A stretch of DNA of 64,000 bases from an uncultured Gammaproteobacteria bacterium (GTDB lineage Bacteria > Patescibacteriota > Microgenomatia > Levybacterales > UBA12049), in contig CAZWXQ010000003.1 in NCBI GenBank assembly GCA_964637955.1, forward strand, positions 159,154-223,153, read 5' to 3'. Both the position numbers and the translations under genes were made by a program. Positions 13,342-45,570 of this stretch are shown here, in pieces (within the stretch, counting starts at the first letter, position 1; every line of letters begins with the position of its first letter). The notes beneath the pieces are model-generated. The model saw nothing but the letters and a program-made list of their open reading frames with translations, was not told the origin of the DNA and made no database searches.

Positions 13342-13436
13342 ACATTCATTATATATGTTAATTGCCCAACATCTATAGAAGTAATTATTTTTGTCCTCGA
13401 GGTAAATTTTATATAGGATATATCAGCTTCAGTATA

Positions 13437-13472
13437 GATATATATCAATAAACATCAGTTTAAGATTGATAA
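13437..13472. promoter_or_regulatory. Imperfect inverted repeat ATATCAAT-N15-ATTGATAA upstream of the HTH gene promoter; related to the perfect inverted repeat at 45508-45540
   Basis: ATCAAT at 13444-13449 and ATTGAT at 13465-13470. The flanking TATAT is shared with the 45508 site. Confidence 0.4.
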
Positions 13473-13485
13473 CATTGCTTTAGCA

Positions 13486-13514
13486 TTGACATTATAGGCC
13501 ATTTATGATATATA
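13486..13514 (+). promoter_or_regulatory. Sigma70-like promoter: TTGACA (13486-13491), 17-nt spacer, TATATA (13509-13514)
   Basis: The -35 is a consensus hexamer. The predicted transcription start near 13521 gives a 12-14 nt leader to the ATG at 13535. Confidence 0.45.
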
Positions 13515-13534
13515 TGGCTATTCATATCTCAATT

Positions 13535-13741
13535 ATGATTGATATAAGTAAAACTAACTTCCTTACAGTTGCAGAGGTTTCAGCACTACTGCGATTAAGT
13601 GAGCTTACTATTTATAAATACCTTAAAGAAGGTAAGCTTGAAGCAGTCGAATTTGGCGGTCATTATCGCATTTCAGAATCTTCATTATTTAAATTTATTG
13701 AAAAGCATAAAGTAAATTCAGTTAAGGAGGAAAATGAATAA
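13535..13741 (+). CDS. Small helix-turn-helix DNA-binding protein (excisionase/MerR-like HTH_17 type)
   Basis: FLTVAEVSALLRLSELTIYKYLKEGKLEAVEFGGHYRI is the canonical helix-turn-helix of the excisionase-family DNA-binding domain. The track start at 13505 falls inside the predicted promoter, so I prefer the ATG at 13535. Its 3' end carries the AAGGAGG Shine-Dalgarno site of the next gene. Confidence 0.55.
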   Translation: MIDISKTNFLTVAEVSALLRLSELTIYKYLKEGKLEAVEFGGHYRISESSLFKFIEKHKVNSVKEENE

Positions 13742-16700
13742 CGAATCTACTGGGTTGAGTATTATCGTTCCTACATATAATGAAGAAGCTAATATTAAAT
13801 TATTAGTTGAAAGAATTCACGCTGCTTTATCTGATGCAAAAATAAATTATGAAATAATTTTTGTTGATGATCACTCTACAGACCAGACTCAAAATGTGAT
13901 CAGTAATCTAGCCATTTTTTTTCCAATCATTTCAACTACTAAGGTAGGCAAAAAAGGTAAAGCATATTCAATATTAGAAGGTGCTAAATTTGCTCAGTTT
14001 GATAATTTAGCCATGATTGACGCAGATCTTCAATATCCGCCAGAAGCTCTTCCGAAAATGGTAAACATGCTTAAGTATTCTGATTTGGTAATTTCAAATA
14101 GAAAAACATATAAAGATACAAAACTTAGAAAAGTTTTAAGTCGTACATTCAAGTTTATGTTTGGAAAGGTTTTATTTGGACTTAATTATGATATTCAATC
14201 AGGACTTAAAGTGTTTACAAGAGAAGTTTTTGAAACATTAAAGTATATGCCTTCATCTTCTTGGACATTTGATCTTGAGTTTTTACATAGGGCGAAACAG
14301 GCAGGATTTCATATGAGCAGCTATGATATTACTTTCACCAAAAGAGCAAAAGGAAATTCAAAAATGGGGATCATGAAGCAAGTTATAGAAATTGGATCTA
14401 ATGCAATAAGAGTCAAAGCAAAAAGAATTAGACCTGTTCATATTGCTCCAAAAAGTTTAGATTCTATGAAAGGTGCTGGAATAGGTTATAAAAAAAGAAA
14501 GTATATTACTCATACTACTATTCCACATCACTTATCAGCTTTAACTACCGTAACTAAATTACAAAAATTTATCGTAATTATGATTGTTGGAATTTTAATT
14601 GTTGGAATACTGACAACGCCGATGCTAACTTTAAAGTTGTTAATTGGAGTTCTAAGTTTTATATACCTGGCAGATGTATTATTTAATTTATTTTTAATTT
14701 CAAAAAGCTTAAATAGTCCTCAGGAAATTATATCTTCAAAAGATGAGATTGATTCAGTGAAGAATTCAGATTTGCCAATATATTCTATACTTTGTCCACT
14801 CTATAAAGAGGCTCAGATTATTCCGCAATTTTTAGAAGCTATTGAAAAAATTTCGTGGCCAAAAGATAAGCTTGATGTAATATTACTTTTGGAAGAAGAC
14901 GATAGGGTAACGATCGATGTTGCAGCAAGAATGGATTTACCTTCTTTTGTTAGAACAATTATTGTTCCACATTCAATTCCTAAAACAAAACCTAAGGCAT
15001 GTAACTATGGACTTGCATTTGCAAAAGGAGAGTATGTAGTTGTTTATGATGCAGAAGATATCCCAGATGTAGACCAATTAAAAAAAGCATTTCTTGGTTT
15101 TAAGAAAAGTTCAGAAAACGTAATATGTCTTCAAGCGAGACTTAATTATTACAATCCTCACCAGAATTTATTAACAAGATTTTTTACAGCAGAGTACTCA
15201 CTTTGGTTTGATGTAACGCTTCCTGGAATGGTGGCGATTGAAACTGCTTTGCCATTGGGTGGAACCAGTAATCATTTCAAAACAAAATACTTACAGTCTG
15301 TTCATGGATGGGATCCATTTAATGTGACTGAAGATGCCGATTTAGGAATCCGGCTTTTTAACCAAGGATATAAAACTGCAATGATTGATTCAACAACTCT
15401 TGAAGAAGCAAATAGTAATCTTAAAAATTGGTTTAGGCAAAGATCACGTTGGATAAAAGGGTATATGCAGACATATCTGGTGCATACGAGACGAAATGGT
15501 GTTTCAAGCAATAAGAAATCAAAACACTCTTTATATTTTCAATTAATAATTGGAGGAAAAATCGCTTTTGTTCTTATAAATCCTATTCTTTGGATTGCTA
15601 CATTTGCATATTTTGCACTTTATTCATATGTAGGGCCTAGTATAGAACAGCTATATCCCAATGTCATATTTTATATGGCTATATTTTCTCTCGTAGTTGG
15701 CAATTTCCTCTTCCTTTATTACTACATGATTGGACTTGCGAAGAAAGGACAATGGAGTCTTATTAAATATGTGTTATTAGTTCCTATTTATTGGTTAATG
15801 ATAAGTATTTCTGCATTCATCGCTTTGTATCAATTAATATTTAAACCTCACTACTGGGAAAAAACAGTTCATGGTTTACACTTGAAGAAAGATGAAGTTA
15901 AAGAAAAAGTAAACGTTGTGGAAGAGATCCCCGCATATGATGATATCTCAAAGAAAAGACTTAGATATATTAATATTAAGCAAATTGCTGCAGTTACTAT
16001 ATACTCATTAGGAATATTATTCATTTTTCAAGATAATATTTTATATGCTTCATTAGTTTTGTTAAGTTCATTCTTAATTTACGTCATCTATACTTTATTG
16101 TTTCCTCTTTTAGCAGATTTATTACGCTCTGTGTTTTCAAATTTAAGTGATTTACTTAGTATGTTTAAAAAATCAAATGAGGAAAGCAGTGGAATTAGGA
16201 TTTTAGTATTAAATTGGAGAGACAGTAAGCATAAATGGGCTGGTGGGGCAGAGGTATATGCACATGAGTTAGCTAAAAGATGGGTAAAGGATGGCAATAG
16301 TGTAACAATGTTTTCTGGAAATGATGGAAAGAATAAAAGTAATGAAACTATTGATGGCGTAAATATCATAAGGCATGGAGGTTTTTATACAGTCTATTTC
16401 TGGGCTTTTGCTTACTATGTAATTAAATTTCGCGGAAAATTTGACGTAATTATTGATACTGAGAATGGAATTCCATTCTTCTCGCCTTTATATTCTAGAA
16501 AGAAAAAATTTCTCTTGATTCACCATGTTCATCAGGAAGTATTTAGAAAAAGTTTAAGATGGCCATTTTCAGACCTAGCATTATTTTTAGAAGCAAAACT
16601 TATGCCGTTTGTTTATAGAAATGTTCAAGTAATCACAGTTTCTCCGTCATCAAAAAAAGAAATTTTAAAACATAAGCTGACTAAAAAAGATCCAATAGTC

Positions 16701-17345
16701 ATCTATAACGGTGTAAATCATGACATATTTAAGCCCGCTAAAAAAAGTCAAAAGCCAATGGTCATATATCTTGGTAGACTTCAGTACTATAAAAGTTTAC
16801 ATATTTTTATAGTAGCTGCAAAAAGAATACTTAAGAAAAATCCAAAAGTTCAGTTTGTTATCGCTGGCGAAGGTGAGGAAAAAAAGAAGCTAATGAATTT
16901 TGCTAAAAAATTGGAAATTTCTGATCAAGTTAATTTTTTAGGCAAAGTAACTGAAGAAGAAAAAGTAAAGATATTTCAAGAAGCATGGGTATTTGTTAAC
17001 CCTTCTTATATGGAGGGATGGGGAATTACTACGATTGAAGCAAACGCTTGTGGAGTCCCAGCTGTTGCTTCAAATGTAGCAGGATTAAAAGATGCTATTA
17101 AAAATAATGAAACGGGATTTTTGGTTGATTATAAAGACTATGACAGTTTCACAAAAAGTATATTAGCTTTAATCGATGATGAATCATTAAGAAAAAGAAT
17201 GTCAGAAAATGCATTAAATTGGTCAAAGAAATTTAGCTGGGATATTAGCGCTGAGTTGTTCCTTGAAGTTATTAAGATCTCATTACAAGAAGATGATTAC
17301 AAATCAGAATCTTATACAAATATATTTTTAATGCAAAAAAACTAA
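13734..17345 (+). CDS. Three-domain membrane glycosyltransferase: N-terminal DPM1/GtrB-like GT2, central processive GT2 synthase (PgaC/NodC/cellulose-synthase-like), C-terminal GT4
   Basis: Domain 1 (LSIIVPTYNEE..FVDDHSTDQT) is polyprenyl-phosphate sugar synthase-like. Domain 2 has YDAEDIPD, VTEDADLG (TED) and FRQRSRW (QxxRW) and is flanked by TM helices. Domain 3 (EGWGITTIEANACGVPAVAS..ETGFLV) has the GT4 E-x7-E signature. An AAGGAGG Shine-Dalgarno site lies 7 nt upstream. 1203 aa. Confidence 0.8.
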   Translation: MNNESTGLSIIVPTYNEEANIKLLVERIHAALSDAKINYEIIFVDDHSTDQTQNVISNLAIFFPIISTTKVGKKGKAYSILEGAKFAQFDNLAMIDADLQYPPEALPKMVNMLKYSDLVISNRKTYKDTKLRKVLSRTFKFMFGKVLFGLNYDIQSGLKVFTREVFETLKYMPSSSWTFDLEFLHRAKQAGFHMSSYDITFTKRAKGNSKMGIMKQVIEIGSNAIRVKAKRIRPVHIAPKSLDSMKGAGIGYKKRKYITHTTIPHHLSALTTVTKLQKFIVIMIVGILIVGILTTPMLTLKLLIGVLSFIYLADVLFNLFLISKSLNSPQEIISSKDEIDSVKNSDLPIYSILCPLYKEAQIIPQFLEAIEKISWPKDKLDVILLLEEDDRVTIDVAARMDLPSFVRTIIVPHSIPKTKPKACNYGLAFAKGEYVVVYDAEDIPDVDQLKKAFLGFKKSSENVICLQARLNYYNPHQNLLTRFFTAEYSLWFDVTLPGMVAIETALPLGGTSNHFKTKYLQSVHGWDPFNVTEDADLGIRLFNQGYKTAMIDSTTLEEANSNLKNWFRQRSRWIKGYMQTYLVHTRRNGVSSNKKSKHSLYFQLIIGGKIAFVLINPILWIATFAYFALYSYVGPSIEQLYPNVIFYMAIFSLVVGNFLFLYYYMIGLAKKGQWSLIKYVLLVPIYWLMISISAFIALYQLIFKPHYWEKTVHGLHLKKDEVKEKVNVVEEIPAYDDISKKRLRYINIKQIAAVTIYSLGILFIFQDNILYASLVLLSSFLIYVIYTLLFPLLADLLRSVFSNLSDLLSMFKKSNEESSGIRILVLNWRDSKHKWAGGAEVYAHELAKRWVKDGNSVTMFSGNDGKNKSNETIDGVNIIRHGGFYTVYFWAFAYYVIKFRGKFDVIIDTENGIPFFSPLYSRKKKFLLIHHVHQEVFRKSLRWPFSDLALFLEAKLMPFVYRNVQVITVSPSSKKEILKHKLTKKDPIVIYNGVNHDIFKPAKKSQKPMVIYLGRLQYYKSLHIFIVAAKRILKKNPKVQFVIAGEGEEKKKLMNFAKKLEISDQVNFLGKVTEEEKVKIFQEAWVFVNPSYMEGWGITTIEANACGVPAVASNVAGLKDAIKNNETGFLVDYKDYDSFTKSILALIDDESLRKRMSENALNWSKKFSWDISAELFLEVIKISLQEDDYKSESYTNIFLMQKN

Positions 17346-17346
17346 T

Positions 17347-18393
17347 ATGAAAAAAGAAAATTTAAAAAGTCATAAAAACAGTTTCAATCTACTTAACATT
17401 ATTATCTTAGAGTTTTTTGATTTACTAGTGAAAAGATTTGTAAAACCACAAAAGTTTAATGCACCAAAGGAGATAGGTAGTTATAAATTAAAATTTAAAT
17501 TTAAAAAACAATGGAAATCAGACACGGGTAAGCTAGGAATATATGAATCAATTGACGGTAAAAAAGCATTTGGAAAGACTGTTAATTATAAATATAAAAA
17601 CGCATCTTACATAAAGCTTAAAAATGAAATCGAAATTTATAAATTAATAGATAAAGTAATATCTAATTTAACAAAAAAAAATAAATCTAAATTTAATAGT
17701 TTTAGAATTCCAAAGTTCATTCATAGTAGTGAGTCTAAAAATTCGCTATCACTATTAGTCGAGTATGTGGAAGGAATTAGGGCGGATAATCTTTCTTCCG
17801 ATGATAAATTTAATCTTTATATAAAAAATATTGATTTTCTAGATAATCTTGGAAGCTCTATGTCCAATTCGCAAAAAAATACATTTTATAAAAGAACTTC
17901 GATTAATTATGTTTTACTTTATCCTTTATTATTGATTTTTGCTTTGATTAGAAATTTTGAATCAAGGAAAGAATTGCTAAGAGGAGCATTTATATTTATA
18001 AAGAATTTTAATCTTTTATTTTTGCAAAATAAATTAGTTTTAACTCATAGGGATCTTCATTTTAAAAACATAATAGTAAATGAGAAAGAAAATATATTAA
18101 TAGATTTTGAATCAGCAGTATTTACAGTTCCATATTATGATGTTGTTACAACTTTAAGATATGAATGGAATGATTTAGAATTTACTAAATTGCTAATTTC
18201 AACAATAGAGAAAGAAAATATATTAAATAATAAATTTGAAAATTATTTTAAATTATTGATGATAATCTCCTCTACCCATGGTTTGACTGCGAACAATTTT
18301 TCTAAAAAAGAAATTAATCAAATAAATAAGTTTTTGTCTTTCGGGCTTGCATATAAGTTTAATAAGACAAATATACAAGGAGCATTTTCATGA
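17347..18393 (+). CDS. Protein-kinase-like fold phosphotransferase (APH/choline-kinase family)
   Basis: LTHRDLHFKNIIVNEKENILIDFESA carries the catalytic-loop HxDxxxxN and the DFE metal-binding motif. 348 aa, inside the glycan gene array. Confidence 0.5.
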   Translation: MKKENLKSHKNSFNLLNIIILEFFDLLVKRFVKPQKFNAPKEIGSYKLKFKFKKQWKSDTGKLGIYESIDGKKAFGKTVNYKYKNASYIKLKNEIEIYKLIDKVISNLTKKNKSKFNSFRIPKFIHSSESKNSLSLLVEYVEGIRADNLSSDDKFNLYIKNIDFLDNLGSSMSNSQKNTFYKRTSINYVLLYPLLLIFALIRNFESRKELLRGAFIFIKNFNLLFLQNKLVLTHRDLHFKNIIVNEKENILIDFESAVFTVPYYDVVTTLRYEWNDLEFTKLLISTIEKENILNNKFENYFKLLMIISSTHGLTANNFSKKEINQINKFLSFGLAYKFNKTNIQGAFS

Positions 18394-19187
18394 TGAAGAA
18401 TCATTTTTTTACACTTAGAAAAATTTTATTTAGAATAACTTACCTAGTTTCTAAGTTAATTCCTGGGAAAAGCGTTTCTGTGCTTTGCTTTCACAGTATC
18501 TCAAAATCAAATGACAGATATTCTGTTTCGCCTGAGAAATTTAAAAAAGAGATTGAAATAATTTCTAAACATTCTGATTTCATAAGTTTTAAAGATTTTT
18601 TGGATAACAGAAACAAAAAAAAATCATCTGTAATAATTACATTTGATGATGGATACAAAGACATAATTGGAATAGTGCCAATTATTAAAAGATATAATAT
18701 TAAGCCGATACTATTTGTTTTATCAAATCATAGAAATGTTAATAGAATCGAAATTGAGAACGATAATAAATTATTAACTATTAAAGAAATTAGATATTTA
18801 GTAAAAAATGGTTTTGAAATTGGTTCTCACAGTGCAACTCATTCTAATTTGTCCAAAATTTCAGATAATGAATTAATTGAAGAAGTAATAAATAGCAGAA
18901 GGATTCTTCAAGAACAATTGCGAGTGGATATTAATTATTTTGCATATCCGAAAGGAATAAATAATAAAAAAATAGTCAATATCGTGAAGAAAGCAGGATA
19001 TAAATATGCTTTTACTGTTGAACCTGGAAATTTAAATGAAAAAAATGATAATTATAGACTTCCAAGAACAATTATAGATAAAACACATCAATTGTCTGAA
19101 TTTCCAGGAGTATATTCTAAAGGGACGTACATAATTAGGAAAAATACAAATAGATTTAAATTATGGGAGAGGTTTTTAAGTATATGA
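18390..19187 (+). CDS. CE4 polysaccharide deacetylase (NodB/PgaB/IcaB-like)
   Basis: ITFDDGYKD is the TFDDG motif 1 and GSHSATHSNL is the H-S-x-x-H motif of the NodB homology domain. It overlaps the upstream gene at an ATGA junction. Confidence 0.8.
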   Translation: MMKNHFFTLRKILFRITYLVSKLIPGKSVSVLCFHSISKSNDRYSVSPEKFKKEIEIISKHSDFISFKDFLDNRNKKKSSVIITFDDGYKDIIGIVPIIKRYNIKPILFVLSNHRNVNRIEIENDNKLLTIKEIRYLVKNGFEIGSHSATHSNLSKISDNELIEEVINSRRILQEQLRVDINYFAYPKGINNKKIVNIVKKAGYKYAFTVEPGNLNEKNDNYRLPRTIIDKTHQLSEFPGVYSKGTYIIRKNTNRFKLWERFLSI

Positions 19188-20095
19188 AAAAAATTAGCGT
19201 AACTGTCGGAATTCCGGCATACAATGAAGAAAAAAATATTGAAAATATATTAAATGATATTCTATTTCAGGATAAGAATTCATTTGTTCTTAAAAAAATA
19301 TATGTTTCATCTGATGGAAGTACGGATGAAACGAGTAAAATTGTTAAAAGATTTGTTAAAAAGTATGATTTTATAACTCTTTTAGATAATAAGGAAAAGT
19401 TGGGTAAATCAACAAGATTAAATGAGTTATATAAACTAAGCAATACAGATATTTATATTAATTTTGATGCAGATCAAAAGCTCGGAGATAAGTTTGTGAT
19501 AGAAGAAATAATTAAGAAATTTAATAAAAGTAAAGTAGGTGTAGTTGGGGCGTCATCTTTACCTATGAAGCCAAAGAAGTTTTTTGAAAAAATTGTAGTT
19601 GCTTGGATAAATGTGTGGATATCAGTAAGAGAAGATTATAAAAAAGGAAATACAATTCATAATCATTTGGGATGCGCTTCTGCAATGAGGAAAAATATTT
19701 ATAAAAATATTAATTTACCAAAAAATTTAATTGCTGATGAAGATTATATTTATTTTTCAGCAATGAAAATGGGATATGATTTTAGATTTGCAAAGAATGC
19801 AAGGGTATATTATAAAAGTGCTTCAAATATTAATGATTTTTTCATACAGCATTCAAGATTCTTAATGATTAAGGATATAGTTGCTGAGCATTTTGGTTCT
19901 TGGGTTTTAGATTATTATATAATCCCAAAAAAATATAAGATAAACAGTTTGCTGAAGAATTTAATTAGAAATCCAATTTATTTATCCTTTTCAATTGTTC
20001 TCCAAATGTTGTTAGTTATTTATAAAAAATTAAATAATGAAAATTATAATTCAGGTAAGTGGAAAGAAGTAAAAACATCTAAGGTCTTAATATGA
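19184..20095 (+). CDS. GT2 glycosyltransferase, tandem paralog 1 of 3
   Basis: GIPAYNEEKNIENIL..SSDGSTDET shows a GT-A fold with a DxD motif, with hydrophobic C-terminal helices. I chose the ATG at 19184; the track start at 19163 lies inside the upstream gene. Confidence 0.7.
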   Translation: MKKISVTVGIPAYNEEKNIENILNDILFQDKNSFVLKKIYVSSDGSTDETSKIVKRFVKKYDFITLLDNKEKLGKSTRLNELYKLSNTDIYINFDADQKLGDKFVIEEIIKKFNKSKVGVVGASSLPMKPKKFFEKIVVAWINVWISVREDYKKGNTIHNHLGCASAMRKNIYKNINLPKNLIADEDYIYFSAMKMGYDFRFAKNARVYYKSASNINDFFIQHSRFLMIKDIVAEHFGSWVLDYYIIPKKYKINSLLKNLIRNPIYLSFSIVLQMLLVIYKKLNNENYNSGKWKEVKTSKVLI

Positions 20096-20997
20096 AAAAC
20101 TATAAAACAATTACTGTGGGAATTCCTGCATACAATGAATCAAGAAATATTTCTTTCTTGCTTAGTGCTTTAAGCACACAAGTTATAAAAACTGGTATTT
20201 TAAAAGAGATAATTCTTATTTCTGATGGAAGCATCGATGAAACAGTTGCAACAGCAAAATCGGTTCATTTACCTTTTCTAAAAATAATTGAATACAAGCA
20301 TAGAGAAGGAAAAATGAAAAGACAAAATGAAATTGTTAAATTATCAGAATCTGATATTTTAGTGCTTTTAGATTCTGACACAATTCTTTTTGGAAATGAT
20401 TTTATTGAAAATTTAATTAATCCAATTGTTTTGGATGAAAATGTTGGATTGGTAGGTGCAAATATAAAAAGCTTAAGAGGTAAAAATTATATTCAAAGAT
20501 CATTAGCCTTAAGTCATGATTTTAAATGGAAAATGTATGAAAAAATTGATGAAGGAAATAATATTTATTTATGTCATGGAAGAGCGAGGGCATTTTCTAA
20601 AAAATTATATAAAAATATTAATTGGCCAGATGAATTTCCTGAAGATGCATACTCATATTTATGGAGCTTGAGGAATGGATTTAAATTTGCATACGCCAAG
20701 AAAGCGGTACTTTTATTTAAATCTCCAGATAATATCAATGATCATCTTAGGCAAAGTTTAAGATTTAAGACTGGAAAATATATTTATAATAAAGATTTCT
20801 CTAAAGAATTCTTAGAATCTGAATACCACATTCCTAAAAAGATTATGTTAGGTTCTATATTTTTACAATTCATAAAACATCCGATTGATATGTCAATTTA
20901 TTTACTGATAATGGTTTATATAAAAATATTTAAATCAGATACAAAAGTAGATAATAATAGATGGGAGATTTCAGAATCTACAAAGGAAATCAATTAA
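20092..20997 (+). CDS. GT2 glycosyltransferase, tandem paralog 2 of 3
   Basis: GIPAYNESRNISFLL..ISDGSIDET has the same architecture as paralog 1. It joins the upstream gene at an ATGA overlap. Confidence 0.7.
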   Translation: MKNYKTITVGIPAYNESRNISFLLSALSTQVIKTGILKEIILISDGSIDETVATAKSVHLPFLKIIEYKHREGKMKRQNEIVKLSESDILVLLDSDTILFGNDFIENLINPIVLDENVGLVGANIKSLRGKNYIQRSLALSHDFKWKMYEKIDEGNNIYLCHGRARAFSKKLYKNINWPDEFPEDAYSYLWSLRNGFKFAYAKKAVLLFKSPDNINDHLRQSLRFKTGKYIYNKDFSKEFLESEYHIPKKIMLGSIFLQFIKHPIDMSIYLLIMVYIKIFKSDTKVDNNRWEISESTKEIN

Positions 20998-21927
20998 ATG
21001 AAAAATAATAATAAATTTAAAATAGTAAACGTAGATGTTGTCGTCAGTGCTTTTAACGAAGAGCAAAACATTTCAAACTTAATTCATTCAGTATTAAAGC
21101 AAAATGAAAATGGATATAGATTAAAAAACTTAGTGATATTTTCTGATGGCTCTACGGATAATACTGTAAGAGTAATTAAGAAAATTTATGATCATAGGAT
21201 TAAAATCTTTTCTTTCAAGGATAGAAAAGGAAAATCAAGCAGATTAAATAAATATTATAAAAATTCTAATTCAGACATTTTAGTTCAAATTGATGCAGAT
21301 GTTATTTTATCTCATAAAAATGTTTTAACAGATATTGTAAGGCCAATTATTAAAAATAAAAATGTTGGAATGTGTGGGGGAAACGCTCTTCCGATGAAAG
21401 GTAAAACATTTACAGAGAAGGCGGTTAATTATACTAACCAAGCATATCAGCCTATTAAGGACAATCAAAAAAATAAAGATAATGTTTACTCAGTAAGTGG
21501 AGCGATCATGGCCTTTAGAAAAGAACTTGTAAGTATAATTAATTTGCCAGAAAATGTGATAGCAGAAGATGTTTATATTTATTTTTTATGTTTAACTAAC
21601 AAATTTCTTTATAGATATGTTCCATCTGCAGTAGTTAATTATAGATCACCGTCAAATTTAAGGGATCAGATCAAGCAGAATACAAGATTTTTAATGTCTG
21701 AAACAAAAATGAGCATGTATTTCTCAAAAGATTTAGTTGAACGCGAATCTTATTTTCCCAAGAAAATATTGGTAATTCAAATGTTAAAAATTTTCATAAA
21801 ACATCCATTTCATTGTATATATATATTTATAGTTAATAGATATTGTCAGTTGAGAGCAGAGAAGTTAGTATTAGAAATGAAGGCTGATTGGCAAATTGCT
21901 GGGAGTACTAAGAAAGGATTTGCTTAA
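20998..21927 (+). CDS. GT2 glycosyltransferase, tandem paralog 3 of 3
   Basis: VVVSAFNEEQNISNLI..FSDGSTDNT. It shares the C-terminal RFLM motif with paralog 1. Confidence 0.7.
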   Translation: MKNNNKFKIVNVDVVVSAFNEEQNISNLIHSVLKQNENGYRLKNLVIFSDGSTDNTVRVIKKIYDHRIKIFSFKDRKGKSSRLNKYYKNSNSDILVQIDADVILSHKNVLTDIVRPIIKNKNVGMCGGNALPMKGKTFTEKAVNYTNQAYQPIKDNQKNKDNVYSVSGAIMAFRKELVSIINLPENVIAEDVYIYFLCLTNKFLYRYVPSAVVNYRSPSNLRDQIKQNTRFLMSETKMSMYFSKDLVERESYFPKKILVIQMLKIFIKHPFHCIYIFIVNRYCQLRAEKLVLEMKADWQIAGSTKKGFA

Positions 21928-21947
21928 AGAATCAAGCAAGATTTGAT

Positions 21948-23501
21948 ATGAAGACTATGTTTTATAAATTATTAAAAATTGGATTTGTAGTATTTGTTGG
22001 ATTAATTCTTTCTCTATCCATAAGAGGAAATAAAGGAAATCCGACTTCTCAAGATTTAAGTAATATAAAGTGGGCAGCGAATGGGCCGTTTGAGCTATCT
22101 CCTGAAAGGGGCAGATTTGCATTGATGTACAGCATGGTTGAAGATAGATCTTTTTATTTCTCAGAACCTGTTGCTAGATTTGCAGCTCCTGATATTGGCG
22201 AAAGTAATGGGCATTATGTTTCTTTGTTTGCTCCACTAGTTTCATTTATCATAATTCCAGGATATCTTCTTGGAAAAGTTTTTGGAGTGAGTCAGGTGGG
22301 AGCATTTGCTGTGATAGCATTATTTGCGCTTTTTAATGTAATTCTATTAAGATTAATTGCAATAAGGCTTGGTGCTGGAAAATTGCCAGCTACCATAGCT
22401 TCACTTTTATTTTTATTTGCAACTCCAGCATTCTCATATGCAGTTAACTTATATCAGCATCATATCTCAACTTTTTTAATTCTTTCGAGTATATATTTGC
22501 TTTTAAAATCAAATAAGATTTGGGTATTATTTGGCGTTTTCTTTTTATGCGCTATGTCTATACCTTTGGATTATCCTAATGCATTTCTCATGTTTCCAAT
22601 TGGTGTCTATGCGCTCCTTCGAATAATTTCACTAAAAAGAGATGAGGAAAAAATAATATTTAAATTTAATTTTGTAAAGTTTTTAACTGTATTTATTATG
22701 ATTTTACCACTACTGTTCTTTTTCTGGTTTAATAAAAAATCATATGATAATCCGCTTCAGTTTTCAGGGACAGTAAAAACAGCAGAATTTAAAGACTTAA
22801 ATAATATTGATAATTTTAATAAAAAATTTATTGAAAAAAATGTGGGAGAGGAAAAAGGGAAATCAGCTTTAGGCTTTTTCAGCACACGTGATCTTCTAAA
22901 TGGTTTTTATATTCATACGATAAGTCCAGATAGAGGAATCGTATACTATGCCCCTGTGGTATTGTTTGGTATTGCTGGAATAATTTTTGCTATACGAAGA
23001 AAGATGCAAATGACAGCCGTTTTGGTTGCTGTAATAGGCGCTAATTTACTTCTTTATTCAATGTGGGGAGATCCTTGGGGAGGATGGGCATTTGGATCCA
23101 GGTATTTGATTCCGACATTTGCAATCCTTTCAATTTTTACAGCAATAGCTATAAATCGATGGGGAAATAAAATATTATTTGTCATACCATTTATAGTTGT
23201 TTCCATCTATTCGGTAGCTGTGAATGTTTTGGGAGCGATTACTACTAGCGCTATGCCACCTAAGATCGAAGTTCTGGCGCTTGAAAAAATTTCAAACACC
23301 GTTCAGAAATATGATTATTTCAGAAACTGGGATTATCTTTCTGGTGGAAATTCTAAATCATTTATCTATCAAGCATTTTTAGAAAAATATATTTCATCGG
23401 TATTGTTTTATGGAATCTTAACTATAAGCATATGTTTGGTTTTGGGAAGTTTAATCATTTATCAGTATATGTATTCAAGGAGAGGAGTATCGAATGATTA
23501 A
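21948..23501 (+). CDS. GT-C-like polytopic membrane glycosyltransferase, family A (paralog of 29150-30589)
   Basis: ERGRFALMYSMVE matches the (D/E)xxR(Y/F)A motif of ArnT/PMT-type GT-C enzymes. The motifs IDYPNA and WGDPWGGWAFGSRYL are conserved in the minus-strand paralog. Confidence 0.5.
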   Translation: MKTMFYKLLKIGFVVFVGLILSLSIRGNKGNPTSQDLSNIKWAANGPFELSPERGRFALMYSMVEDRSFYFSEPVARFAAPDIGESNGHYVSLFAPLVSFIIIPGYLLGKVFGVSQVGAFAVIALFALFNVILLRLIAIRLGAGKLPATIASLLFLFATPAFSYAVNLYQHHISTFLILSSIYLLLKSNKIWVLFGVFFLCAMSIPLDYPNAFLMFPIGVYALLRIISLKRDEEKIIFKFNFVKFLTVFIMILPLLFFFWFNKKSYDNPLQFSGTVKTAEFKDLNNIDNFNKKFIEKNVGEEKGKSALGFFSTRDLLNGFYIHTISPDRGIVYYAPVVLFGIAGIIFAIRRKMQMTAVLVAVIGANLLLYSMWGDPWGGWAFGSRYLIPTFAILSIFTAIAINRWGNKILFVIPFIVVSIYSVAVNVLGAITTSAMPPKIEVLALEKISNTVQKYDYFRNWDYLSGGNSKSFIYQAFLEKYISSVLFYGILTISICLVLGSLIIYQYMYSRRGVSND

Positions 23502-25134
23502 TTTTCGAAATGGTTATATTATCATTAAAGTTTCTGAAAAAAATAAAATTCTTGACTCTATATTAAATTTTTTAGATAAATATACAGTTTATCTATTAAT
23601 ATCGTTTTTATTTTTTGTTTCGACTCTTTCTTATTTATTTTTCTATCAAAATGGGCTTGGCCTTGCTTATAATGATGCGCGGTCTCATTTAGATATAGGC
23701 AGACGTGTAGTGGAAGGTCTTAAGCCTGGATTTGCACAACTCGGATCAGTTTGGCTGCCACTCCCTCATGTGTTGATGCTTCCTACTATATGGAATGATT
23801 TTATGTGGCATACAGGTCTTTCTGGAGCACTTCAGTCAATGATCTCATTTATAGCAACAGGCTTATTAATTTATTATTTCTTAAAAGAGATTGGGGTTAG
23901 TAAATTTGGAAGAATAATTGGTGTTTTGGTTTTCGTTCTTAATATTAACATTTTATATCTTCAGTCTACTGCAATGACTGAGCTTCTGTTAATTGGGACG
24001 ATGATGGCTGGAATATATGAATTTCTTTTATTTTTTAAAAAAGGACAAATCATAAATTTAATATTTTCAGCATTTTTCATAATGCTTTCTACGATGATTA
24101 GGTATGATGGATGGTTCTTATTTGTTTTTTGCGCATTCTTGCTTGGAATCCAGGTCATAAAAAGTAGAGGATATAAGGTTAGTGAAGGAGTAGTATTACT
24201 ATTTGCTACCCTTGCAGGATTTGGAATTGCATTATGGTTTTTATGGAACTTGCTAATATTTAAAGATCCACTTTATTTTATTTTTGGTCCATATTCTGCA
24301 CACACTCAGCAAGAACAGCTCGCTGCAGCGGGAAATTTAGCAACACAAGGAAATTTATTATTTTCAATTAAAACCTACATCTATGCTCTAGCTTATAATT
24401 CAAATACTTTTATTTTAGTTCTGGGATTTATTGGTGCAGTTGTATTTTGGTTTGATAAGAATATTTCAACTAACATTAAGATTGCATCAAGTGCTCTTTT
24501 TGCCCCGCTTATATTTAATATCTTAGCTCTCTATATGGGTCAATCTGTTCTTTTTATCCAAGGACTTTCTGGAAATACATGGTTTAATGCCAGATATGGA
24601 ATTATGCTTATGCCATCCCTTGCGATTTTTATAGGTTATTTAGTTTATAGACTTAACAATTTGAAATATGTATTAGTAGGTCTTATGGCATTTGTTTTAT
24701 TCTTTTCATTTTCAAGTTATGATGCAGTAACCATAGATGATGCCAGAGTTGGATCAAGTCAAAAAAATGTATCTGAAGTATCAGGATGGTTAGGGAAAAA
24801 TGCTAAAGATAAAGAGGGATTTGTATTAATTTCTGCAGCCTCACATGATGCAATTATTTTCTCTTCAGGGTTACCTATGAAAAGATTTATTCATGAAGGA
24901 ACTGGATTGTATTGGGACAGTGCTACAGTTGCTCCAGACAGGTGGGCGCGGTGGATAGTTATGAGAACAAATGACAATAATGATTTGACTTTTAAGCTCG
25001 TAAGCCAAAGCAAATCATTTAGGAATGGAGATTATATTCTTGTTGATCATTACCCATTTGCAGATATTTATGAGATAAAACCAGAGCTCATAAAAAACTT
25101 GAACATTAAACCTAATTTAGGAAAACAAAAGTAA
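23494..25134 (+). CDS. Polytopic membrane protein with a C-terminal soluble domain, family B (paralog of 27559-29160); putative GT-C-type glycosyltransferase
   Basis: YNDARSHLDIGRRV..LGSVWLPLPHVLMLP is conserved in the paralog (YNDSRAHLN..IGSVWLPLNHVLMLP). The C-terminal domain (KRFIHEGTGLYWD) is also conserved. Confidence 0.4.
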   Translation: MINFRNGYIIIKVSEKNKILDSILNFLDKYTVYLLISFLFFVSTLSYLFFYQNGLGLAYNDARSHLDIGRRVVEGLKPGFAQLGSVWLPLPHVLMLPTIWNDFMWHTGLSGALQSMISFIATGLLIYYFLKEIGVSKFGRIIGVLVFVLNINILYLQSTAMTELLLIGTMMAGIYEFLLFFKKGQIINLIFSAFFIMLSTMIRYDGWFLFVFCAFLLGIQVIKSRGYKVSEGVVLLFATLAGFGIALWFLWNLLIFKDPLYFIFGPYSAHTQQEQLAAAGNLATQGNLLFSIKTYIYALAYNSNTFILVLGFIGAVVFWFDKNISTNIKIASSALFAPLIFNILALYMGQSVLFIQGLSGNTWFNARYGIMLMPSLAIFIGYLVYRLNNLKYVLVGLMAFVLFFSFSSYDAVTIDDARVGSSQKNVSEVSGWLGKNAKDKEGFVLISAASHDAIIFSSGLPMKRFIHEGTGLYWDSATVAPDRWARWIVMRTNDNNDLTFKLVSQSKSFRNGDYILVDHYPFADIYEIKPELIKNLNIKPNLGKQK

Positions 25135-26108
25135 TGAAAAAAATATACTTAATTATAACGGGTATTCTTTTTGTAATTTTTGTAAGTTTATTTTTTACTT
25201 TCAAGTCTAAAGAAACCTCCCCATACTCTAATTGGAATTTTCAATCGATTGATACTATGAAATATTCTAGAGACTTAGCTAGAGAGAAATTAAATGATCC
25301 ATTGTTTGATAAAGTCATAAATGATCAAGTTAAAGCTATTTCTGACACAGGTGCGACTCATATCGCTATAGCTACTCCATATGACGAAGAATTTTACCCA
25401 ATATTAAAAAGATGGGTAATTGCAGCAAGAAAAAATAACTTAAAAGTATGGTTTAGAGGTAATTGGGCTGGATGGGAGGGATGGTTTGACTATCCTAAGA
25501 TTAATAGGCAAGAACATTTAGAAAAGTCACAAGAATTTATTCTTAAGCATAAAGATTTGTTTGAAGATGGAGATGTATTTACGGCCTGTCCTGAGTGTGA
25601 GAATGGTGGCCCTGGAGACCCTAGGCAAACTGGAGATATAAAAGGACATAGGATGTTTTTAATAGAAGAATACGAAATGACAAAGTCAGCATTTAAAAAA
25701 ATAAATAAGAATATAATTTCAAACTATGACTCTATGAATGCTGATGTAGCCAAAGCAGTAATGGATAAAAATACTACAATTGCTCTAGACGGAGTAGTGA
25801 CGATTGATCATTATGTGGCTACTCCAGAAAAGATGATTGATGATATTAAATTTATCTCTAAAAATAGTGGCGGTAAGATAGTTTTGGGTGAAATCGGAGC
25901 GCCAATTCCGGATATTAATGGTAATTTAAATGAAGCACAGCAGGCTGATTGGATAAACAAATCATTTACTTTACTTAAAATGTCTCCAGATGTTATAGGA
26001 GTAAATTATTGGACAAATGTGGGTGGATCAACTTCTCTTTGGCATGTAGATGGCTCAGAAAAGCCAGCAGTAGGGATTATTAAATCATTTTATAAGCCTC
26101 AAAGATAA
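25134..26108 (+). CDS. Membrane-anchored extracytoplasmic protein, possible TIM-barrel glycoside hydrolase
   Basis: N-terminal signal anchor, then a soluble domain with acidic motifs (CPECENGG, GEIGAPIPD) reminiscent of GH5/GH113-type hydrolases. The assignment is weak. Confidence 0.25.
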   Translation: MKKIYLIITGILFVIFVSLFFTFKSKETSPYSNWNFQSIDTMKYSRDLAREKLNDPLFDKVINDQVKAISDTGATHIAIATPYDEEFYPILKRWVIAARKNNLKVWFRGNWAGWEGWFDYPKINRQEHLEKSQEFILKHKDLFEDGDVFTACPECENGGPGDPRQTGDIKGHRMFLIEEYEMTKSAFKKINKNIISNYDSMNADVAKAVMDKNTTIALDGVVTIDHYVATPEKMIDDIKFISKNSGGKIVLGEIGAPIPDINGNLNEAQQADWINKSFTLLKMSPDVIGVNYWTNVGGSTSLWHVDGSEKPAVGIIKSFYKPQR

Positions 26109-26123
26109 CTCTAGGACTAACTA

Positions 26124-26151
26124 TTGACAATTTATAAATTTCTGATATAAT
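26124..26151 (+). promoter_or_regulatory. Sigma70-like promoter with an extended -10: TTGACA (26124-26129), 16-nt spacer, TGaTATAAT (26143-26151)
   Basis: Consensus -35 and consensus -10 with an upstream TG, located 45 nt upstream of the sortase-substrate ATG. Confidence 0.5.
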
Positions 26152-26166
26152 CCTATAACAATTTTT

Positions 26167-26195
26167 AATGAAGCTTTTTAGCTTCATTTTTTATT
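26167..26195 (+). terminator. Intrinsic-terminator-like hairpin in the 5' leader: 8-bp stem AATGAAGC/GCTTCATT, 6-nt loop, then TTTTTATT; it ends 1 nt before the ATG at 26196
   Basis: The arms at 26167-26174 and 26181-26188 are perfect reverse complements, followed by a U-tract. The element lies between the predicted promoter and the start codon. Confidence 0.5.
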
Positions 26196-26795
26196 ATGAA
26201 AAGCAAGAATTTATTCGTTATAGTATTAAGTATAGTATTAATGTTATCGGCTTATGTGCCGAGCGCTTTGGCAGCAAACGAACCTTCATTTCCAACTTGT
26301 GTAAATCCACAAGGTCAGGTAAAGGCTTCATATGAATCAGGTAGTCACGGGGTAGTAGGTGACCCAAAAACATATTCAGGTAAAGATACAGTATATTCAC
26401 TTAATGGCGGAAATCAGACACAATGTTTGTGTCCCGTAAATGGAAGTGGAATCCAGACCAATTGGATGAAAGCTTCAAATTTAAGTGAAAATGAAATTAG
26501 CATTTTTGTTAATCAAGGCTGGATACTAGTAGCAGATGGAAGTGCTTGGGGCCTTGATCAAGGGACGTATTTAGCAAAAAACATAAGTTATTCATGCTCA
26601 TCCAATCAGGGCGGAACAAGCTCTAGTAGTTCTTCATCAAATTCAAATGATAGTAAAAATGCAGGTGCTTCAGCTACTAACAGTATATTTAGCTTAGCAA
26701 ATACAGGAAATATTGTATTTATTGCTTCAGTTTTCATTTTAGGATTTTTCTTACTTATTGCTGGATTTGCCACTTCACAAAAAAGAAAAGAGTAA
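26196..26795 (+). CDS. Small secreted surface protein with an LAxTG-type cell-wall sorting signal (sortase substrate)
   Basis: N-terminal signal peptide (LSAYVPSALAANE), a Cys-containing domain, and a Ser-rich stretch (GGTSSSSSSSNSNDS). Then LANTG, a hydrophobic helix (NIVFIASVFILGFFLLIAGFA) and a basic tail (SQKRKE), which together form a tripartite sorting signal. Confidence 0.75.
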   Translation: MKSKNLFVIVLSIVLMLSAYVPSALAANEPSFPTCVNPQGQVKASYESGSHGVVGDPKTYSGKDTVYSLNGGNQTQCLCPVNGSGIQTNWMKASNLSENEISIFVNQGWILVADGSAWGLDQGTYLAKNISYSCSSNQGGTSSSSSSSNSNDSKNAGASATNSIFSLANTGNIVFIASVFILGFFLLIAGFATSQKRKE

Positions 26796-26799
26796 TCAA

Positions 26800-27330
26800 A
26801 TGAATCTTTTTTCAAAGCTGCTCGCTGCTTCGGGAATACTTCTTTTAATATTTGGATTTTATTTAGTAAATTTAAGATTTAGTCCGAAAAAAATTGCCTT
26901 CTCAGATGTAAAGGTTGAAGAAAAAAAGCAAACAAATGTTGCTCCAGCGAGGATAATTATCCCTAGTTTAAAAATCGATAGTAAAATCGTTCCTGCAATA
27001 ATTACAAATAACAAATGGGAAGTCACAAATGAAGGAGTTTCATATTTATCTTCTTCGCCTATTCCTGGAGATCAAGGCAATAGCATTCTTTATGGTCATA
27101 ACTGGAGTAGTATACTCGGAAATCTTACAAAGATTAAGCCAGGGGAGAAACTAATTATAGTAATGAATGACGGTGATGTTAGGGAGTTTGTTGTTAATTA
27201 CACTATGATAGTCTCTCCAACTCAAACCAACATATTAGATCAAAGTAAAGACAATAGGCTTACTATTTATACATGTGCTGGATTTCTAGATTCAAAGAGA
27301 TTTGTAGCCACAGCGCTGCTTGTTAAGTAA
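26800..27330 (+). CDS. Sortase (class E-like transpeptidase)
   Basis: N-terminal TM anchor, catalytic His in LYGHNWSS, the TLxTC-type active site RLTIYTCAG, and a downstream Arg (KRFVATA). The ATG at 26800 is 5 nt after the substrate stop; the track start at 26758 would overlap the substrate. Confidence 0.8.
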   Translation: MNLFSKLLAASGILLLIFGFYLVNLRFSPKKIAFSDVKVEEKKQTNVAPARIIIPSLKIDSKIVPAIITNNKWEVTNEGVSYLSSSPIPGDQGNSILYGHNWSSILGNLTKIKPGEKLIIVMNDGDVREFVVNYTMIVSPTQTNILDQSKDNRLTIYTCAGFLDSKRFVATALLVK

Positions 27331-27360
27331 TTTCCTCAGTAGATTAATTTTAAAAAAGCA

Positions 27361-27400
27361 AAAAGGTCTACTTTTTGGGCAGACCTCTTTGTTTATTTTG
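27361..27400. terminator. Bidirectional intrinsic terminator between the converging sortase and minus-strand GT-C genes
   Basis: AGGTCT (27364-27369) pairs with AGACCT (27381-27386), followed by CTTTGTTTATTTTG. The complement strand also reads hairpin plus T-tract. Confidence 0.55.
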
Positions 27401-27558
27401 ATTTTCTTACCTTGTGAGTAAGTCCATCCCCTGTAATGTCCCTCAAAAGAACTAGTATCTTTATTGGCAAGTCTAGCTAATGCATTAGTTAGGCATAATT
27501 AGAATAATACGTTTTTTATAGGTTTGTCAAGTTTTAAGCCTGGCTTGTAATATCAAAT

Positions 27559-37710: not shown

Positions 37711-38361
37711 ATGAATAGTAAGCTTGTGATCTTCGTGATCGCATGTGCATTAGGAGTAGGAGCAATTCTAGTCTTTGCAAAAAATAATATGAATACGAAC
37801 AACCCAACAGATCAAGTTCAAGGTGCTACAAGTTTTTCAGATTCCGCTTCTGGAGCTCCTAGTCCAGTTTCAAATCAGCTTGGTGGGACAACTCAGGTAG
37901 CAGCAGGTACCCAAAATCAAACCCAACAACAGCCAGCAGGTTCTCAGAGTCAGGGTCAGGCTCAAGTCCAAACACAGGTTCAAGGACAGGCTCAGGGATC
38001 AGCTCAGGCTTCAGATCCGCTACCAACAGGTCCTATTACAGAATTAATGATTAAAGATAGAGTGATGGGTAGTGGGGCTGAAGTAAAAAGTGGAGATACT
38101 GTTGACGTTAACTATCTTGGCACATTTTTAGATGGTCAAAAATTTGATTCTTCATATGACAGAGGTCAGCCTTTTAGCTTTACAGTTGGCGCTGGAAATG
38201 TAATTAAAGGTTGGGATCAAGGTCTCGTTGGCATGAAAGTTGGTGGAAAAAGACAATTAATAATTCCTTCAGATTTGGCCTATGGCGCTGGTGGTGCACC
38301 AGGTGCAATTCCTCCGAATACTCCCCTAGCATTTGAAATAGAGCTTGTAGCTATTAAATAA
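37711..38361 (+). CDS. FKBP-type peptidyl-prolyl cis-trans isomerase, membrane-anchored with a Q-rich linker
   Basis: The C-terminal FKBP domain reads DTVDVNYLGTFLDGQKFDSSYDRGQPFSFTVGAGNVIKGWDQGLVGMKVGGKRQLIIPSDLAYG. An N-terminal TM helix and a disordered QAQ repeat linker precede it. Confidence 0.85.
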   Translation: MNSKLVIFVIACALGVGAILVFAKNNMNTNNPTDQVQGATSFSDSASGAPSPVSNQLGGTTQVAAGTQNQTQQQPAGSQSQGQAQVQTQVQGQAQGSAQASDPLPTGPITELMIKDRVMGSGAEVKSGDTVDVNYLGTFLDGQKFDSSYDRGQPFSFTVGAGNVIKGWDQGLVGMKVGGKRQLIIPSDLAYGAGGAPGAIPPNTPLAFEIELVAIK

Positions 38362-42741: not shown

Positions 42742-42742
42742 A

Positions 42743-42810
42743 TTGACATAGTTTGACTTATTGACGTTTGTGAAAACTAGCGTTAAAATAAAGTCACTTT
42801 TCACAAAGAT
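42743..42810 (+). promoter_or_regulatory. rpmA upstream element: three phased TTGAC hexamers (42743, 42753, 42761), a candidate promoter TTGACG-N17-TAAAAT (42761-42789), and a perfect 10-bp inverted repeat TTTGTGAAAA/TTTTCACAAA (42767-42776 / 42798-42807) ending 3 nt before the ATG
   Basis: Direct reading of the sequence. The inverted-repeat arms are exact reverse complements and bracket the predicted -10. Confidence 0.45.
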
Positions 42811-45163: not shown

Positions 45164-45507
45164 TATAATTTATATCTTATATTTTATGTCTAATTGATCA
45201 TAAAGATTTGATATGCGATATCTTTAATATGTTTGAAATAATTAAAAAATATCATTTTGAGATTAGACTTATGGTAATTGGTTTACTGTTAATTTATTTC
45301 GGCTTCATGGAAATACTTAGTAGCTAAATTATCCATCTAACATTAAATACAACTTAAAAAAATAGAAGTGCATTTATATTTGATTATGAGGATACCATGA
45401 GTAATATGTCTGGGGTTTTTATTTGTTAATAGTTCTGTTTTTTTTTTCAAAAAATCTAATTAATAATAAAATAATTGGACCGGATTAAGGGGCTAACTCC
45501 ACCATTT

Positions 45508-45542
45508 TATATATCAATAAATGCATGTCATTGATATATAAT
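45508..45542. promoter_or_regulatory. Perfect 11-bp inverted repeat TATATATCAAT-N11-ATTGATATATA overlapping a TATATAAT -10, 29 nt upstream of the GT4 gene; candidate operator
   Basis: The arms at 45508-45518 and 45530-45540 are exact reverse complements. The spacer AAATGCATGTC contains an ATGCAT palindrome. Confidence 0.5.
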
Positions 45543-45570
45543 ACATGGAAGTTTATTATTAAAATCATTT

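Follow-up and report, generated by a model that had tools for sequence, protein, structure and literature searches.

A probable unit of promoter, BldC-like regulator and envelope-glycan operon conserved in Levybacteria/Microgenomates

Introduction

Classical MerR regulators carry a C-terminal coiled-coil dimerisation and effector domain, and the promoters that they activate have a spacer of 19-20 bp. BldC of Streptomyces is a 68-residue monomer, which forms head-to-tail multimers on 9-bp direct repeats and not on palindromes (PMC5859096). According to two papers (PMC5859096, PMC11963761), the excisionase-family proteins typically use arrays of direct repeats bound by cooperating monomers. Our literature search on BldC-like proteins in CPR bacteria found no paper.

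To our knowledge, the CPR (Patescibacteria) have very few recognisable transcription factors, and the regulation of their cell surface is almost unstudied. The cell surface of these bacteria mediates the attachment to the host.

The window analysed here is one stretch of DNA of 64,000 nt (contig CAZWXQ010000003.1 of assembly GCA_964637955.1, positions 159,154 to 223,153). With a probability of about 0.6, we read its HTH locus as a conserved unit of promoter, regulator and envelope-glycan operon of Levybacteria/Microgenomates (CPR), in which the inverted repeats around the promoter are -10 words and not an operator.

The HTH gene and its protein

The HTH gene was located at 13535..13741 on the plus strand. 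Its product is a stand-alone winged helix of 68 aa that belongs to the excisionase family and is BldC/Xis-like in type. A preliminary description of the window had pointed to a small HTH gene at this place, and two profile searches confirmed it: the protein scored 53.1 bits against PF12728 (Pfam HTH_17; cut-off 27, E 3.9e-14) and 50.7 bits against TIGR01764 (excisionase-family DNA-binding domain; cut-off 28.8), so that it belongs to both families by scores above the curated cut-offs. The longest open reading frame starts at ATG 13505, which falls within the promoter; the start was set at ATG 13535, giving the 68 aa, and in the relatives L040 and L042 an in-frame TAA stands between the two ATGs.

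The AF2 model of the protein (pLDDT 78.7) had the topology strand-helix-helix-strand-strand-helix and contained no dimerisation domain. Foldseek with this model gave BldC (6AMA/6AMK) as best matches, with TM 0.63-0.84, rmsd 1.3-1.5 A and 33% identity, followed by Xis, RacA, the MerR N-domains (NmlR, SoxR, CadR and GlnR) and RdfS; the PDB profile search returned BldC (6AMA, 6AMK; E 0.02) and mycobacteriophage Pukovnik Xis (4J2N). Among 44 close homologues, T25, Y27, K28 and Y29 of the predicted recognition helix were invariant, as was the wing G41-R45. No HTH_17 paralogue was found elsewhere in the window. A wider search gave about 220 representatives at E <= 1e-10; among these, proteins of 236-479 aa (P0165, P0166, P0168, P0171 and others) carried 4-8 tandem copies of a closely related HTH domain, an arrangement that would fit a domain acting in arrays.

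BldC was the best PDB match of the HTH protein by sequence profile and by fold. Both are 68-residue stand-alone MerR-like winged helices without dimerisation or effector domain, and the GGH(R/Y)R wing motif is common to both; in architecture, as a stand-alone winged helix of about 68 aa with a BldC-like fold, the HTH protein is of the BldC type. However, since it reached only 20.5 bits against NCBIfam NF033787, of which the cut-off is 77, it is not a BldC-family member by the NCBIfam criterion. BldC is a pleiotropic developmental regulator encoded alone, whereas a glycan operon begins with the gene of the HTH protein, and the AATTxxxx(C) 9-bp repeats of BldC were not found as such here.

With the excisionase family (Pukovnik Xis 4J2N and RdfS 8DGL) the protein shares the fold and domain scores above the cut-offs, but its gene is without integrase or mobile-element context and keeps its synteny with a glycosyltransferase gene across many genomes. 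The fold is also related to the N-terminal winged helix of the classical MerR regulators; the HTH protein has, in contrast, no coiled-coil/effector domain and its own promoter has the optimal spacer of 17 bp, and with only 68 aa and spacers of 17 or 18 bp at its promoters it is not a classical MerR regulator. A further likeness is offered by the small autoregulators that lead operons, with a small DNA-binding first cistron, a consensus promoter and conserved non-hexamer motifs flanking the -35; the difference is that here we infer the autoregulation. From these comparisons, the predicted function of the HTH protein is most likely to bind DNA and to (auto)regulate the operon that begins with its gene.

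Conservation of the locus

Scanning one genome per species gave 37 HTH loci; 41 non-redundant loci were used for the promoter. Those of the 37 loci that bore a taxon name all came from MAGs of Levybacteria, Microgenomates or Patescibacteria. A homologue of the HTH gene lay directly 5' of a homologue of the large glycosyltransferase gene in 36 of the 37 species genomes, and the pair was also found in L040 (90% identity) and L042 (78%). The genes downstream of the pair (tailoring genes) varied between loci, and we therefore consider the HTH gene and the glycosyltransferase gene as the conserved core.

The large glycosyltransferase had 1203-1217 aa in the clade of the window (the window, L040 and L042) and 1571-1605 aa in L003, L006, L025 and L028, where it contained an extra module of about 370 aa without Pfam match. 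In L009, L013 and L036 it was divided between a GT2-GT2 protein (about 747 aa) and separate genes. Many MAGs labelled 'uncultured Gammaproteobacteria bacterium' (L003, L005, L007-L010 and others) contained the Levybacteria-type HTH-glycosyltransferase locus with 60-72% protein identity, and the labels on such MAGs look like placeholder or wrong taxonomy.

Promoter and leader

The promoter of the HTH gene was found at 13486..13514 on the plus strand, composed of the -35 TTGACA (13486-13491), a 17-bp spacer and the extended -10 TGaTATATA (13506-13514), of which TG occupies 13506-13507 and TATATA 13509-13514. With hexamers within 17 +/- 1 bp and TG at -15/-14, it is of the sigma-70 type with extended -10, and the transcript start is predicted around 13520-13522. 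The promoter TTGACA-N17-TATATA had been proposed before and was borne out, its position and sequence being conserved: in all 41 non-redundant loci a near-consensus promoter stood at a constant distance before the coding start. In 35 of the 41 loci the -35 was TTGACA; the spacer measured 17 bp in 35 of them and 18 bp in the other 6, and in most loci 44-46 nt lay between the -10 and the conserved FLTV codon. The -10 was compensatory, with TG before TATATA-type hexamers in 31 loci and a perfect TATAAT without TG in nine. Because the same architecture is conserved across the 41 loci, we take it as strong evidence that the predicted sigma-70-type promoter of the HTH gene is real.

The leader (13515..13534, plus strand) is short and reads GTTCATAnCTAAGTT-ATG in the close clade. 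An mRNA started at this near-consensus promoter would have no SD and a leader of which about 14 nt are predicted to be transcribed. That the HTH gene lacks an SD, as the preliminary description had stated, is correct, but it is nothing special to this gene, since an SD-like sequence precedes only about 12 of the 54 genes in the window. At several first genes TATAAT lies 6-12 nt before the ATG, for example at the flippase gene (13341) and at 37711, 37654 and 42370, which suggests that leaderless or short-leader mRNAs may be widespread in the source organism. Our literature search on leaderless mRNAs or SD usage in Patescibacteria found no paper, and PMC9297842 provided ribosome context of a general kind only.

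The glycan operon

The SD and the start of the glycosyltransferase gene (13724..13736, plus strand) lie within the HTH coding sequence, with AAGGAGG at 13724-13730 and ATG at 13734, so the earlier claim that both are contained in the 3' end of the HTH gene was confirmed in the sequence. Between the two genes there is an 8-nt overlap (ATGAATAA). An SD-like sequence within the HTH 3' end recurred in 21 of 37 relatives, and the strong SD of the glycosyltransferase gene is an exception in a window mostly without SDs. Following it is the large glycosyltransferase (13734..17345, plus strand), which has 1203 aa and three modules: a GT2, a second GT2 of synthase-like type (PgaC/CelA-like), membrane-embedded and with predicted TM segments, and a GT4. 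In the proposed mechanism, the first cistron would be the excisionase/BldC-type winged-helix protein, and the internal SD together with the overlap would couple its translation to that of the GT2-GT2(synthase)-GT4 enzyme.

Eight more co-directional glycan genes were found at 17347..26108 on the plus strand, with junctions of +1, -4, -25, -4, 0, +20, -8 and -1 nt. They encode an APH-like kinase, a polysaccharide deacetylase, three GT2, two putative glycosyltransferases (LA_3751/2-like, with 11-12 TM) and one unknown protein. Counted from the HTH gene, the array 13535-26108 comprises ten genes and nine junctions, the first of -8 nt and the other eight as given above. About 11 overlapping head-to-tail genes had been described up to 26108; the tight same-strand array stands, but it holds ten genes and its gaps reach +20 nt.

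A terminator-like hairpin, AATGAAGCT-TTTT-AGCTTCATT (26167-26188) and then a T run, was located at 26167..26195 on the plus strand. It is the only strong plus-strand terminator-like hairpin in the region, and is likely the operon end; after the eight further glycan genes it would close the unit. From 13535 to 26108 the genes share one strand, follow each other closely or with overlap, and have a single promoter and a single terminator, as in an operon. The long operon proposed before can thus be kept as an operon-like array closed by a terminator-like hairpin, whose co-transcription we infer from the sequence.

Inverted repeats

Site 1 (13441..13473) is an imperfect inverted repeat, TATATCAAT-N15-ATTGATAAC, with 7/9 matching, and its core is ATATCAAT (13442-13449), N15 and ATTGATAA (13465-13472). 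Its left arm, read on the minus strand, is TGATATATA and lies in the clade-conserved block ATCAnTnnAnATCAT, while its right arm is unique to this genome. A third repeat of the same words (13525..13546), TATCTCAAT-TATG-ATTGATATA, lies across the start codon of the HTH gene; it has 1 mismatch and a spacer of 4, and relatives do not conserve it.

Site 2 (45507..45541) is a perfect palindrome and the longest short-loop repeat in the window. A perfect 11-bp repeat at 45508-45540 over the -10 of the GT4 gene had been noted; the repeat is present and does overlap the -10, but its arms are of 12 bp (45507-45518 and 45530-45541), with a loop of 11 nt. The right arm is the extended -10 (TGaTATATA / TATAAT, 45532-45542) of the GT4 gene, 29 nt 5' of ATG 45571, and the minus strand carries this word again in the left arm. 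From 45571 onward, the second locus is a glycan locus too, with GT4, acyltransferase, formyltransferase, GT2, oxidoreductase, DegT aminotransferase, UDP-sugar dehydrogenase and acetyltransferase genes. The gap before the GT4 gene (45164-45570) is gene-free over 407 nt, which is unusually long; its sole features are ORFs of 21-39 aa and a T11 run.

The words that make up these repeats are concentrated between genes. TGATATAT has 8 copies in the window, 6 of them in the intergenic 4.2%; TGATATATA has 4 copies, all intergenic, being the HTH -10 and three repeat arms; and TGnTATA(A/T)(A/T) shows an enrichment of about ten-fold between genes. This enrichment indicates that the shared core is the generic extended -10 word TGATATAT of the genome. 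The ATCAAT/ATTGAT repeats would then be lineage-specific arrangements of an ordinary extended -10 word in AT-rich intergenic DNA. Where an AT-rich genome depends on extended -10 promoters, palindromes of the TGATATAT word arise easily, and an operator reading needs comparative support.

If the repeats are made of -10 words, they might also act as promoters in both directions, the back-to-back extended -10s at site 2 starting a leftward transcript (a small RNA or protein) in the gap before the GT4 gene and those at site 1 forming a distal promoter of the flippase gene, the divergent MatE/Polysacc_synt-type gene upstream of the HTH gene. All four TGATATATA copies are intergenic and form the divergent pairs 13439-/13506+ and 45508-/45532+, and the true divergent gene pair 37654/37711 has the same TGnTATAAT layout (37663-/37694+). 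We nevertheless consider bidirectional promoters doubtful. To the left of site 2 no convincing minus-strand gene, ORF or Rfam RNA could be identified, and Rfam and tRNA scans of the whole window found nothing. The flippase gene already has a leaderless-type -10 TATAAT of its own (13348..13353, minus strand), 6 nt 5' of ATG 13341, conserved and reading TGTATAAT-aaagct-ATG in L040, by which the left arm of site 1 was ruled out as the flippase promoter; and the minus-strand element is not conserved in relatives.

That another, genome-specific dimeric repressor has its operator at site 2 (perhaps also at site 1) and occludes the GT4 -10 is unlikely, even if site 2 is a perfect 12-bp palindrome over the -10 and its arms exceed the -10 word by 3 bp. 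The expected number of perfect repeats with arms of 11 bp or more is 0.55 per window, and for arms of 9 bp or more the count was at chance level (14 seen, 11.5 expected). The window contains no second HTH_17 paralogue, and no candidate regulator was found. Site 2 was not kept in L071-L075, a comparison of five contigs in which footprinting is weak, the GT4 relatives obtained by a metagenome scan and a protein search being at most 69% identical and mostly in other contexts. In the nearest of these (66-69% identical) only the -10 and downstream bases were common, L071 and L075 keeping gTATATAATACA; L071 further retained ATCAATnAATGCAT (ATCAAT) beside a ATTGATCAAT palindrome, without the right arm of the window, and the others kept nothing more of site 2.

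The preliminary description had read the repeats as an operator, proposing from the shared ATCAAT/ATTGAT half-sites that one regulator, possibly the HTH protein, controls both loci. In such a model the HTH protein would bind the repeats as a dimer, both at the promoter of its own gene and, 32 kb away, at that of the GT4 gene. Two intergenic sites TATCAAT-N5-25-ATTGATA were indeed seen in the window, against 0.054 expected under a whole-window Markov model (P ~0.001, a post hoc value); both lie at glycan-locus promoters, a third near-copy lies over the HTH start codon, and ATCAAT with ATTGATCAAT is kept in L071. The comparison with relatives did not uphold the operator, and we hold this dimer model to be very unlikely. 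In the close clade, where the HTH proteins are 78-90% identical, promoter and leader aligned almost base for base, but the right arm ATTGATAA of site 1 was replaced by (A/G)GCTAnTA in every relative; the left arm was found in L043 only. In the 41 loci, almost no ATCAAT/ATTGAT lay between -200 and +160 relative to the promoter, and TATCAAT-N5-25-ATTGATA had 0 matches in 496 kb of related DNA. As the DNA-contact residues of the HTH protein are invariant among its orthologues, repeats that are not conserved upstream of about 40 of these count against an operator, and the conservation at orthologous promoters that marks a palindromic dimer operator is absent here. The half-site spacers of 15 (site 1), 4 (third repeat) and 11 (site 2) are not constant, which is incompatible with one dimeric binder. 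Moreover, the closest structural relatives are monomers on direct repeats, and the 68-aa protein has no dimerisation domain.

Among shuffled AT-rich intergenic regions, a 7-mer inverted-repeat arm was common to two regions in 20% of trials and a shared 14-mer occurred in 29%, so that the post hoc coincidence has P ~0.2 under this intergenic null. The repeat elements are present, but the statistical link between the two loci is not compelling. The repeats are most likely not the operator of the HTH protein and would provide no link between both glycan loci; a genome-specific role of the ATCAAT/ATTGAT words is possible, given that L071 retains ATCAAT next to ATTGATCAAT.

That the HTH protein is the excisionase (recombination directionality factor) of a mobile element and not an operon regulator is highly improbable, because, although TIGR01764 is its best family match and phage Xis is among the top structural matches, its gene has no integrase neighbour within a mobile element and stands among cell-division and glycan genes (FtsZ, NUDIX, PMT_2, flippase and glycosyltransferases), with the glycosyltransferase synteny in 36 of 37 genomes and a dedicated conserved promoter.

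Candidate regulatory motif

If the HTH protein has a site in its own operon, the best candidate would be TATAGG/CCTATA flanking the -35. With the hexamers masked, CCTATA/TATAGG was the top enriched 6-mer near the 41 promoters, with 40 copies against 3.6 expected, in 26 of 41 loci. It had stereotyped positions: CCTATA at -7 (9 loci), and TATAGG at +7 (7 loci), at -74 (the close clade) and at +50 (the long-leader clades). In the window, an upstream TATAGG (13412..13417, plus strand; block gTTATAGGtTAA) has the same direction as the TATAGG next to the -35 (13493-13498), and all 4 intergenic TATAGG copies lie at promoters between 13.4 and 27.5 kb. In loci with CCTATA at -7, the adjacent 52 bp had diverged to 31-63% ungapped identity (random 26%, 95th percentile 37%), and since the flanking DNA has diverged to near-random identity we take TATAGG/CCTATA as a kept motif. 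Compared with other non-coding DNA, the enrichment of TATAGG is only about 2.7-fold; the motif is absent from about a third of the loci, its positions are clade-specific, and its recurrence may come partly from shared ancestry.

The direct-orientation TATAGG at -74 and +7 in the close clade was the sole sign here of a direct-repeat arrangement. Also in the close clade, the spacer and the -10 are crossed by three TAT(A)GG units in tandem; these were set aside, as two of them coincide with the extended -10. A family-wide operator at a fixed position was also set aside: the per-column information of the 41 loci, anchored on the -35, gave no single universal site and was confined to the hexamers, cc..ATAG 5' of the -35, ATAAGCT 3' of it and ACA..TC after the -10.

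By analogy with BldC/Xis, the HTH protein might act on its own operon through several monomers on TATAGG/CCTATA by the -35, recurring upstream or in the leader. Tentatively, one might see in it a BldC-like 68-aa protein that is found throughout Levybacteria/Microgenomates, is hard-wired as first cistron to a giant GT2-synthase-GT4 enzyme of the envelope polysaccharide and controls its promoter, which is of consensus strength, through multimers on TATAGG-type repeats flanking the -35. If this is true, it would be a lineage-wide, single-target BldC/Xis binding mode that sets the surface-glycan output in ultra-small episymbiotic bacteria. A regulator conserved with the main polysaccharide synthase and its promoter is a concrete and cheap target in vitro, with a 68-aa protein and 150-bp DNA.

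Other features of the window

After the last gene of the array, the region 26124-26195 contains a perfect TTGACA-N16-TATAAT (with TG), then CCTATAA, and then the hairpin 26167-26188, 7 nt before ATG 26196; by this layout a promoter and a terminator are nested within one 87-nt gap. The region 26196-27330 encodes a secreted protein with a Ser-rich tract, a LANTG sorting signal, a TM segment and a KRKE tail, followed by its sortase. On the basis of the sorting signal, the TM segment and the tail, we consider the protein a sortase substrate. Sortase homologues near the HTH-glycosyltransferase pair were also found in L013, L017 and L019, and the glycan operon may for this reason modify the LANTG surface protein.

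On the minus strand of 27345-27530 there is a promoter-like site TTGACA-N18-TATTCT (27530-27501), with CCTATAA 2 nt after TTGACA. About 110 nt beyond it, a strong hairpin with a 13-bp stem and a T run was observed (27391-27359; fold z-score -1.9). This stretch of the minus strand contained no ORF and no Rfam match. We read the element as a possible small RNA or else as a possible terminator that serves both directions of the convergent gap. Finally, three TTGAC words within 24 nt (aTTGACatagtTTGACttaTTGACg) were found at 42742-42770, 5' of an unlisted small ORF that resembles ribosomal protein L27.
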